From Candidatus Nanohaloarchaea archaeon (GTDB lineage Archaea; Nanohalarchaeota; Nanosalinia; Nanosalinales; Nanosalinaceae): a DNA stretch of 32,551 nt. Numbering within the stretch: the stretch's first letter is position 1; each line of letters begins with the position of its first letter. Made by a program: the position numbers. Location of the stretch: NCBI GenBank assembly GCA_047617745.1, contig JBLGBN010000008.1, positions 1-32,551 on the forward strand. Reading direction: 5' to 3'. Positions 15,001-18,000 of this stretch are shown here, piece by piece.

Positions 15001-18000
15001 GCCTGCTGTTTGACCTCTATCTCGGTGTTTTCGGTTATTTTTACCGGTCCTTCCGGTTTTGTGTTGACTACCGCAAGCTTTGTGTCCTGGCCGAATGAGA
15101 ACCTGAATCTGTCAGCCTCCATGTCGAATACGTCGTCGAAGAATGATTTCTTCCGGTTTTCTGAGTCTCCAGGTACTACTATGTCGCCTTTAACTACTGC
15201 TCTTCCTCTTAGTGCTCTCTGGAAGATGTTGGGGTTGGATACTTGGATCATAACTCCTTCTTCTGCTGGAGCTAGCGTTATTTTTTCGGCTTCTTTCAGT
15301 TCTGCTTTCCTGACGTTTACTTTCTGGCCTAATGAGGTGCCTGCGTTTTTCCTCATGTAGCCGTCCATTCTTACGATCCCGAGTCCTTTGTCTTTGGGGT
15401 AGGATCTTGCAACTCTTCCTACAGTCTTTCTCCCGTCCTCGATTTCTACTGCTTCGCCTTCCGCTACGCCGAGCTCCTCCATTACTTTGGAGTCTATGCG
15501 GACTATCCCTTTTCCTATGTCCTGCTGGGCGTTTGGAGGTACTTCTCCTACTCGGAGCTTTACACTTTCATCTTTGTTTCCGTTGTCGTTTGTCATTATA
15601 GTATCACCTTTTTCTTATCCTGAAATTTTTTCGTCTTCATTATCGTCTTTTATCTGTTCGATTATGTTTTTGTCCTCGATTAAGACCTTGAATATGTGGT
15701 GGGAAACCTTTTCGCCCCACTCGAGGAAATAGTTCTCGACCTTCTGTACTCTGTTGTTTGCTATTATGAATACGGAATCGTCGATCCGGGCGTTAGGTAT
15801 TTTGTCCATCAGTCCGTCTTTCTCGTACTCGTATTTCTTCCCGTTTTTCTTGACTGTCTGTTTGTATCCGAAGAGCCCTCTGTAGAACTTGTTTCGTTCG
15901 TAGACTGACTCGAACTTGTCTCTATGGGTGTTGTACGTCAGTAATGAGGCATCCTCTTTTCCGGACATAGTAGAACGATATCTGTTTACCTTTAAACCTT
16001 TTTTGTTGACGTGAGTAAAAAATTTCTGTGTTCTGATTCCTATAAGATAAAAGATTTGGAAGCAAGGATTCAGTGTGGAAGTTAAAAGGGTATCAACGGG
16101 GAGCAAGCCTATCGACTCTTTCCTGAAAGGGGGGCTTGAGACAGGTATAATAACCAATGTATTTGGAGAATCAGGGTCTGGCAAGACCAATTTCTGCGTT
16201 CAGGCGGCAGCTCATATAGCCGAGAAGGGGAAAAAAGTGGTGTATATTGATACTGAGAAGGGTTTCTCGCCCGAGCGTTTCAAACAGATAGCTTCAGAGG
16301 AAGCACTTGAGAATATTGTACTGAACGAGCCGGTTGATTTTGAACAGCAGGAGGAAGCGATAAACTCTCTCGACGAGATAGTTGAGGAGCATGATCCCGG
16401 TATTGTTATCGTGGATTCGATGGTGTCGCTTTATCGTTTGAAGGCGAAAGGAGATCAGGTGCAGGAGGTAAACCAGCGGCTTTCACAGCAGCTTTCACAG
16501 CTCTCCAAGATCGCGAGAAAACAGGATATCCCGGTTCTTGTCACCAATCAGGTATACAGTAGTTTTGACGAGGACAGCATAGAGCTGGTCGGGAGAGACG
16601 TGCCACGTTACTGGTCCAAGTGTCTCCTCAAACTTTCAACTATGGATCAGGCAGTTAGAAAGATCGAGATCGAGAAGCATCGGTCGATGCCGGAAGGAAA
16701 ATCGGCACAGTTCAAGATAACAAATGACGGGCTTGAATCTGTCAAGAATAAAGGGCTGTTCTGAGCCAACCAGCGAATTATTTATAAATCTTTGATTTAT
16801 AGTGAGGGTTATGGAGCCATCAACTAAAGGTGGACGCGTTCTGCACTGGTAAGTTCAATCGAGCTCCAGCTATATTCTCAGATTTCTCAATAGTTTCATT
16901 CGATTCTATCGACTCTATTAGCATTATCGTGCTGATCCTGCTACTGGCACTGCTGCTGTAAAAAGCGCAGTGTTCGCTTCTCGTTTCTCAATTTCGAGGT
17001 GAACACAACTCTATGAAAACTACAACAAACAACACCAATGCATACGCAAACTCAAAACCTGTAACAGCTGCAGAAATGGAGGTGAAAAACTAGTGGACCC
17101 GATTGATGGGAAAGGATTTGCCGGAGTTACAGATGAGGGCGGCGTTAGGCCGTCAGGTAACAGAGATTACTTCATCGGTACAGAAACCGGCCATGAAGAG
17201 GTAAGTCAGGTTTTCCAGGATTCAAAGTACTTTGAGGAATCTGAGGGATCAGGGGTAAAGTACTCTGCTCCGGGCATAGATGTAGACGTTACCGGTAAAG
17301 GGATAGAGTACGATGTCGATAAGCAGGCTGATGACGGAGCCGTAACCGAGTTCGTTCACGGAATAGTAAGATCCTTTGACGACGTTGAGGAAGAGTTCTT
17401 CTCTGAAGTGGAACAGGCAGTATACAACTCCACCAGAGAAATAATAGCTGACGGCGGAACCCTTGAAGATGTAGACCATAGCAGTCCTTACGAATCGGAG
17501 GTAGAACCTGAAGGTTCTCAGGAATCAATGGAACGCGGGATCGGATATCAGGACGAACACGAGAAGATCGCCGACGGTGGCGAGGAAATAATGGGCATCC
17601 CGCTCGCCGGCTTCCCGTCCAACGTAGAGAGGACGAAGAAGAAAGACTCAGACAACTACATGGGGTCTTTCTAGCCCTTTCCCCCTCTTTTTTCTCAATT
17701 TATTAAACAGTCAGTGAGTATAACCGTTAACATGGACCTAGAGGACTACCGGAAGGAAATTGACAGGGTTAACACCGAGATCGCCGATGCAGTTTCCCGC
17801 AGAATGAATATAGTTGAGGAGATCGGTGAGTACAAGAAAGAAAAAGGAATGGAAATCAAAGATGAAGGAAGAGAGGAGAAGGTGAAACAGCAGTTTGAGA
17901 AACTGTTTGAAAGAGAAGATCTTCCAAAGGAGAAGGGTCGTGAAATGGCAGAGCTTCTGATCGAAATGGCGCTGGAAGAGGAAAAGGGTGGTGAAAACTG

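Follow-up and report, generated by a model that had tools for sequence, protein, structure and literature searches.

The window analyzed here (32,551 nt of Candidatus Nanohaloarchaea archaeon, contig C8 of an 834-kb genome; GenBank assembly GCA_047617745.1) carries two leaderless short open reading frames (ORFs) on the forward strand, each containing a cassette composed of a Shine-Dalgarno (SD)-like GGTGG, a slip codon, and a sensed codon. The first, a Leu leader, has a TATA box at 16781..16788, 30 nt before the ATG at 16811, a distance from which a leaderless start is probable (TATA peak genome-wide, 28 to 31 nt before the ATG). Its frame-0 upstream ORF (16811..16852; 13 codons; MEPSTKGGRVLHW) stops at 16850-16852 and includes AGGTGG (16828..16833), the putative stimulator of a +1 frameshift, and the slip codon GTT with the sensed, or hungry, Leu codon CTG (16838..16843). 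The +1 frame (16842..16961) continues for 39 codons to TAA and ends in IIVLILLLALLL-stop. An earlier note had described this frame as ending in a Leu run, which was borne out: the Leu/Ile sensor run (16917..16958) holds 12 Leu, Ile, or Val residues in 14 codons, 7 of them Leu, and at least 12 such residues occur in the last 14 codons of only 2 of the 32,668 stop-terminated frames of the genome.

Several elements lie around and behind the +1 stop. Hairpin A (16946..16974, +) is formed by the last Leu codons and the stretch that follows the stop, with the stop codon in the loop. Hairpin C (16970..17006, +; 11 bp; z = -3.8 here) overlaps the 3' arm of A and masks the SD (GAGGTGA at 16996) of an A/C-rich relay ORF (17013..17093, +; 26 codons). 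A U/C-rich tract (16978..16995, +) resembles the gene ends of the genome and is a candidate attenuation site. The stop of the relay ORF overlaps the start of g500 (17093..17674, +), a variable acidic gene with DGG motifs and the likely regulated gene, which belongs to no family and received no assignment in Pfam, NCBIfam, or the atlas. The sequence then shows a U/C tract after g500 and a TATA box (17676..17706, +; the box at 17699-17706), followed by the genes for chorismate mutase (CM), prephenate dehydratase (PDT), class I aminotransferase, and prephenate dehydrogenase (17732..20727, +), neighbors that probably have their own promoter.

The Val leader has a TATA box at 28744..28751 (+), upstream of the ATG at 28772, and a frame-0 upstream ORF (28772..28831, +; MKPATKGGRFVLRRSLFHS) with GGTGG at 28790, the slip codon TTT, and the sensed codon GTA. 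Its +1 frame (28803..28934, +) has a Val-rich tail that also includes Asp, Glu, and Pro, and it is followed by an A/C-rich relay ORF (28958..29035, +; 25 codons) and by g512 (29035..29262, +), a variable acidic gene with no family. Since 69 of the 32,668 frames have at least 5 Val in their last 14 codons, this copy is weaker taken alone, and neither hairpin A nor hairpin C was significant there by folding z-scores. The Val-rich +1 frame reported previously was recovered, with 5 Val in the last 14 codons, as a weaker example than the Leu leader.

These two leaders were the only strict cassette matches in the genome; a looser genome scan added a Gly copy on contig C19. When the genomes of all species were scanned, the matches listed were mostly chance matches in other taxa, which were excluded from the counts, and the named records with the same motif were Nanohaloarchaea; none of four viral-contig matches gave a leader with an ATG and a short frame 0. 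From the fetched loci, 177 cassettes were collected, of which 147 were retained (in-frame ATG, short frame 0, complete +1 frame) and 30 excluded because they lacked an in-frame ATG, had a long frame 0, or were incomplete. Leu, Ile, and Val cassettes were sought on purpose and thus oversampled by design, and relatives are not independent, so the run counts per specifier are not population frequencies.

Judged from sequence, the cassette is an RNA-level signal. When third positions were not fixed in the searches, GGT was the first Gly codon in 53 of 61 and in 30 of 33 matches, and the third cassette codon was variable (Arg, Cys, Tyr, His). GGTGG is considered SD-like in view of the 16S 3' end of this genome, GGATCACCTCC, and of AGGTG (SD) as its most frequent upstream 5-mer; the presumed P-site codon follows after 4 nt. 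Of 60 cassettes, 55 have a C directly behind the slip codon GTT, the slip codon otherwise being TTT. On GTT-C, tRNA-Val(GAC), which was found in the genome, would keep two pairs on UUC, making re-pairing of the P-site tRNA in the +1 frame possible; the preference is as expected if this tRNA moves from GUU to UUC, and we infer +1 frameshifting at the cassette.

In 66 of 67 copies without a codon run, the next start falls between -25 and +20 nt relative to the +1 stop, a count biased by picking the start nearest to that stop; for this interval, frame 0 gave 0 of 67 and the -1 frame 4 of 67, and six run-less copies had no ORF. In a sample of 36, the genes behind run-less Gly, Pro, Ser, Val, Trp, and Tyr copies included the cognate synthetases; those behind run-less Leu copies were mostly other genes, and leuA was also found behind a cassette. 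Because run-less copies mostly precede cognate synthetases or leuA, the cassette appears to follow a starvation-ON logic, against which it counts that one of the two leuA genes has no cassette.

The run itself follows the specifier. At least four sensed residues in the last 14 codons were found in 28/55 Leu, 23/28 Ile, and 4/39 Val cassettes and in 0/25 with other specifiers (147 cassettes), a recount that agrees with the earlier tie of the run residue to Leu, Ile, and Val specifiers. Run leaders with a Leu specifier (18 loci) average 7.5 Leu and 1.3 Ile, those with an Ile specifier (13 loci) 6.1 Ile and 1.3 Leu, and tandem Ile-then-Leu cassettes (12 loci) 4.8 Ile and 4.2 Leu. Run codons favor the isoacceptor of the specifier, with ATA at 2 of 154 Ile codons compared with 0.38 genome-wide. 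A cassette-blind search of 50 family genomes, using the run and hairpin alone as query, returned 10 matches, nine of them with the CTG cassette in the +1 register. In the tenth, G067 (same genus), GGTGG is no longer present, and a 4-nt deletion puts the ATG in the frame of the run, leaving a plain leader of 48 codons with the run in frame with the start. The decay of its cassette in parallel with the deletion argues that the +1 frame is the one translated; the deletion may be an assembly error in a 77% complete genome. The proposal of a two-step branched-chain amino-acid attenuator is well supported by the specifier-run covariation, the register test, the pre-shifted G067 allele, and the covariation of hairpin A.

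Hairpins A and C are mutually exclusive, one of them using the run, and were recognized by covariation (A) and by folding only (C). In 15 of 49 loci, chosen for alignment, 91.8% of 159 hairpin A cells were paired and 5 of 11 pairs carried two-sided changes; 0 of 500 shuffles scored as high. The hairpin suggested by CUGCUG-UAA-AAA-GCGCAG after the Leu run is, by this covariation, real. Sliding the alignment by +3 still pairs 73% of the cells because of codon periodicity. Covariation of hairpin C was not found in an alignment that was out of register for the inner helix and nearly invariant in the outer three pairs. The segment after the stop is common to A and C in many loci. A z-score below -1.64 was obtained for hairpin A in 19 and for hairpin C in 20 of the 49 loci, which counts against the attenuator proposed below, and whole-leader folding was not exceptional (z = -1.3). 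An antiterminator-terminator logic of the 2:3/3:4 type was not found by folding. Pairing of the run with the start of the A/C-rich ORF was tried as a further candidate and rejected, cognate pairs (-8.76) being no better than noncognate ones (-8.69).

Hairpin A is followed by an interrupted U/C tract, and the commonest gene-end hexamers of the genome match this tract. At least 5 T in 8 nt occur in 80% of the 49 spacers, compared with 62% of terminal (n = 429) and 36% of internal (n = 171) gene ends. Hairpin loops in the spacers are 45% U, with the U/C tract kept unpaired there, and the leader has a U content of 38%. The genome has a gene for aCPSF1, a factor reported to bind or prefer U-rich RNA (PMC11616081). 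It speaks against the attenuator proposed below that archaeal terminators are described as mostly having no need of a hairpin (PMC8716108), though some Haloferax volcanii terminators have one (PMC7237163).

From the +1 stop to the next start, the distance is 22 to 69 nt in all 49 loci, and the earlier statement that the two do not overlap is confirmed at both leaders of the window (gaps of 51 nt for Leu and 23 nt for Val). Gaps of this size are larger than the roughly 20 nt at which reinitiation is reported to fail (PMC10666635). That start opens an A/C-rich sequence (A+C of at least 0.8 in 71% of 49 loci and in 0/509 other genes), which is either a relay ORF of 20 to 38 codons (43 loci) or the fused N terminus of the target gene. 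In 28 loci, an automatic test found the relay ORF coupled to an SD-led gene starting within -4 to +10 nt of its stop. The regulated gene is probably the one behind the relay ORF and not the pheA-tyrA operon.

Most target genes have no family. Ile leaders directly precede threonine ammonia-lyase in some genomes: the enzyme is encoded in 5 of 49 family genomes, with an Ile run before each gene (four with the cassette, one with the cassette part in an assembly gap), and it also occurs on one metagenome contig. The genome of the window lacks this gene. Since ilvD was found in 0 of 70 genomes, the lyase cannot complete Ile synthesis, and it may be catabolic. Other targets are acidic, poorly conserved proteins, with a DGG motif in 25 of 58. 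A family of 372 to 393 aa behind five leaders is GNAT-like according to the atlas and a low-confidence model (pLDDT, 55); this family did not settle the direction of control (ON or OFF).

Taken together, we read the element as a ribosome-mediated attenuator that would sense one branched-chain tRNA pool in two steps and turn the next gene ON in starvation (probability, about 0.5). Comparison of sequences establishes the cassette, its register, the match of specifier and run, hairpin A, the relay ORF, and the gene order; frameshifting, termination, and the direction of control are what we infer in this reading. With plentiful Leu-tRNA, the leaderless ribosome would stop in frame 0 and leave about 110 nt of U-rich RNA bare; hairpin A would then form, and transcription would end at or near the U/C tract, probably via aCPSF1/FttA. 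When the sensed tRNA is uncharged, the ribosome would wait at CTG, where the SD-like GGTGG would promote a +1 slip. The shifted ribosome would cover the leader and park where the same codon is repeated; as this run forms the 5' arm of hairpin A, the polymerase could then pass the tract into the U-poor A/C-rich stretch. On the full transcript, the relay ORF would be initiated from its own SD once hairpin C opens and would hand ribosomes to the gene overlapping its stop. The ON direction is favored in line with the synthetase, leuA, and lyase contexts.

The main rival is a translational switch that turns the gene OFF in starvation. Without a ribosome on the run, hairpin A would hold the shared segment and the relay SD would be easier to open; a stalled, shifted ribosome would free the segment for hairpin C and shut initiation, silencing dispensable or amino-acid-consuming genes. 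The sharing of this segment in many loci and the incomplete Ile pathway speak for it, as does the stall effect in the window, which raises the SD opening cost from 8.7 to 12 to 14 kcal/mol and alone would read as OFF; increases of 4 to 12 kcal/mol for the ribosome-binding site were obtained in the window and in loci L170, L171, L173, L174, and L282. However, the effect is inconsistent over the 49 loci (19 higher, 13 to 18 lower; p = 0.18 to 0.54) and is not seen where Ile leaders precede threonine ammonia-lyase, the cassette is of the ON type at synthetases and leuA, and the U/C tract is kept in unpaired loops, so that we regard an OFF switch as unlikely. Rather less probable is starvation-ON control by translation alone, in which transcription is not terminated and a shifted ribosome that has reached the +1 stop would open hairpin C and uncover the SD, the run only prolonging the stay of that ribosome. 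A ribosome covering 15 to 18 nt past the stop does lower the opening cost in 29 to 30 of the 49 loci (p = 0.005 and 0.0001), and the A/C-rich start, present in 71% of 49 loci against 0/509 other genes, suits a strong unstructured initiation region, but the effect is weak when the footprint is 12 nt (22 lower, 13 higher; p = 0.25), a ribosome held up on hungry codons would come late to the stop, and hairpin A is left unexplained. The classical switch in which a stall opens the SD was not found by constrained folding (mean, 0.31 to 0.33). Since a stall gives no SD opening and raises the opening cost, control at the level of termination is favored, in keeping with the ON attenuator proposed above.

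The earlier note also had the Leu leader heading the pheA-tyrA operon, which is difficult to uphold with the relay ORF, g500, the U/C tract, and the CM TATA box in between. Additional control of the pheA-aminotransferase-tyrA genes by read-through, as that note implied, is in our view doubtful. The two lie 770 nt apart on the same strand, a cassette occurs within 1.5 kb upstream in 6 of 30 CM loci, and branched-chain keto acids could be substrates of a class I aminotransferase; in one genus, read-through into PDT or the aminotransferase is possible, as one or the other follows the variable gene there and is preceded by an SD-like signal instead of a clear TATA box. Against it stand the gene, tract, and TATA box in between, the last 33 nt before the CM ATG (at the edge of the genome's peak of 28 to 31 nt) and found in 13 of 30 CM loci, including 5 of the 6 with a cassette, and equivalent leaders beside topA and serS that have no aromatic genes behind them. 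That leaders precede CM, PDT, or the aminotransferase is true in several genomes, but another gene always stood between in the loci examined. Several genomes have the order Leu leader, variable gene, Ile leader, threonine ammonia-lyase, CM operon, and a gene cluster for amino-acid metabolism, with Ile leaders before threonine ammonia-lyase, accounts better for the closeness; because leaders and operon share a cluster, there is no need for Leu and Ile to control the Phe and Tyr genes. We hold it very improbable that the +1 frame yields a small membrane peptide whose tail is hydrophobic or that the element is a functionless relic. The Leu/Ile tails do have 12 to 14 hydrophobic residues, and most genomes lack ilv/leu genes, but the tail residue tracks the specifier and its isoacceptor, the remainder of the peptide is not conserved, the Val tail contains Asp, Glu, and Pro, and hairpin A covaries across genera. 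Least credible of all is a T-box-like RNA that binds uncharged tRNA via UGG and the specifier codon. Although GGGUGG resembles the antiterminator bulge, no Rfam match was obtained in the window at E values up to 5, the frame register is conserved, and the base after UGG is A or C for every amino acid, giving no discriminator match; whereas a T-box has its specifier in a stem 5' of the UGGN bulge, the specifier here lies 7 nt 3' of UGG, in frame with the ORF and too close to span a tRNA.

Beyond the branched-chain attenuator favored here, we would suggest, with slightly under even confidence, a genome-wide amino-acid regulon built on a programmed hungry-codon +1 frameshift. Its second form would gate a codon-run attenuator and so make a two-key, multivalent sensor of aCPSF1-dependent termination, with a portable A/C-rich relay ORF serving any inserted gene, including fast-evolving proteins that symbionts may deploy when the host supplies too little branched-chain amino acid.

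The element is real, conserved, and apparently undescribed so far. A literature search, in which subscription papers were mostly beyond reach, returned no description of such leaders. In the accessible part of a review of hungry-codon shifting, its natural use is called unclear and no such archaeal case is named (PMC5009743). The text available of PMC10266531 mentions an aromatic operon and five noncoding RNAs, with "leader" and "riboswitch" absent, and no cassette was seen by eye in the five noncoding RNAs of its Table S3. Exclusion of aCPSF1/FttA by a coupled ribosome has been proposed as a hypothesis (PMC11616081), and these leaders offer a direct test of whether a ribosome can keep the factor off nascent RNA. 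If the reading is true, it would give archaea a ribosome-mediated amino-acid attenuator, turn hungry-codon frameshifting, usually seen as error, into a built-in sensor, and mark a set of uncharacterized genes in host-dependent archaea as responsive to branched-chain amino acids. A cassette with an exchangeable codon is also a compact biosensor design.

Several known systems share parts of this arrangement. Like the Escherichia coli ilvGMEDA, leu, and thr leaders, it has a short leader ORF in which the sensed codon is repeated, multivalent runs (there Ile plus Leu or Val plus Leu), alternative hairpins, and an Ile leader before threonine ammonia-lyase. Unlike in bacterial attenuators, the run lies outside the frame set by the leader start, so that a +1 slip is needed (except in G067), and is itself a hairpin arm; the host is an archaeon with proposed U-tract/aCPSF1 termination and a relay ORF. 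A cognate pathway downstream is seen where Ile leaders precede threonine ammonia-lyase, most targets being without a family. With prfB (RF2), it shares an SD within the ORF that precedes a slippery P-site codon by a few bases, a slow A site, and a +1 shift used as a sensor; here, however, the A site holds an exchangeable sense codon of the regulated amino acid instead of a stop codon, and the shift site lies in a leader and gates a second sensor. As in tnaC and pyrBI, a ribosome parked at the end of the leader would block termination without a classical antiterminator, but the signal here would be uncharged tRNA read twice and the factor aCPSF1/FttA. The mycobacterial polycysteine leaders are described as leaderless small ORFs ending in a run of the sensed codon, with structure near the SD and a dispersed ribosome-directed regulon (10.1101/834739); in that account there is no frameshift and the SD is released by the stall itself, an effect that folding failed to reproduce here. 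A frameshift within an attenuator leader is also reported for E. coli pheL, where it is described as apparently incidental (PMC3082878), whereas the register here is conserved and precedes the sensor run. The element would work like the bacterial codon-run attenuators and the polycysteine leaders joined to a prfB-like shift site, departing from each in one defining feature.

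The prephenate dehydratase frame of the window's aromatic operon opens with CTG (17998-18000), overlapping the stop codon of the chorismate mutase gene (CTGA), whereas relatives have ATG at the corresponding position; this CTG is either a CUG start or the result of a mutation or an assembly error.

Among the Leu leaders whose +1 frame ends in repeated sensed codons, two from relatives' genomes G033 and G049 (L335 and L339) have several units resembling the cassette ahead of the run. Coupled-type Leu cassettes, which lack the run and have the next start near the +1 stop, were seen at L259, L261, L264, L265, L269, and L275 and at L009, L035, L153, L188, L190, L260, and L272, where the gene behind them either resembles a class I glutamine amidotransferase or belongs to an unassigned family of at least 300 residues; LeuRS is found in this position less often than these two. 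At another locus (L263, G042:C61), a coupled Leu cassette is followed by leuA, with the aminotransferase nearby and neighbors that we take to be leuC- and leuD-like genes; despite this leuA locus, ilvD was not found in the phylum sample.

The third cassette of the window's own genome (G000 C19:13897, minus strand) has a Gly specifier, and the start of the gene behind it is similar to that of relatives' GlyRS. Additional Trp cassettes are paired near GlyRS and TrpRS loci (L083, L087, and L027), some with long +1 frames (114 to 229 codons). In the His (CAC) cassettes at L002/L045, L022, and L029, the +1 frame itself encodes a protein of 81 to 99 residues, presumably AbrB/SpoVT-like from its appearance and a candidate for a true frameshifted gene.

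The window's genome also has, at G000 C2:7736-8602, a gene homologous to the GNAT-like target family; it follows a DEAD-box-like gene and has no cassette. Read on the opposite strand, nc0003, listed as a highly expressed noncoding RNA in Table S3 of PMC10266531, resembles by eye the relay ORFs (short A/C-rich ORFs between leader and next gene) in its A/C-rich look and terminal SD and ATG.
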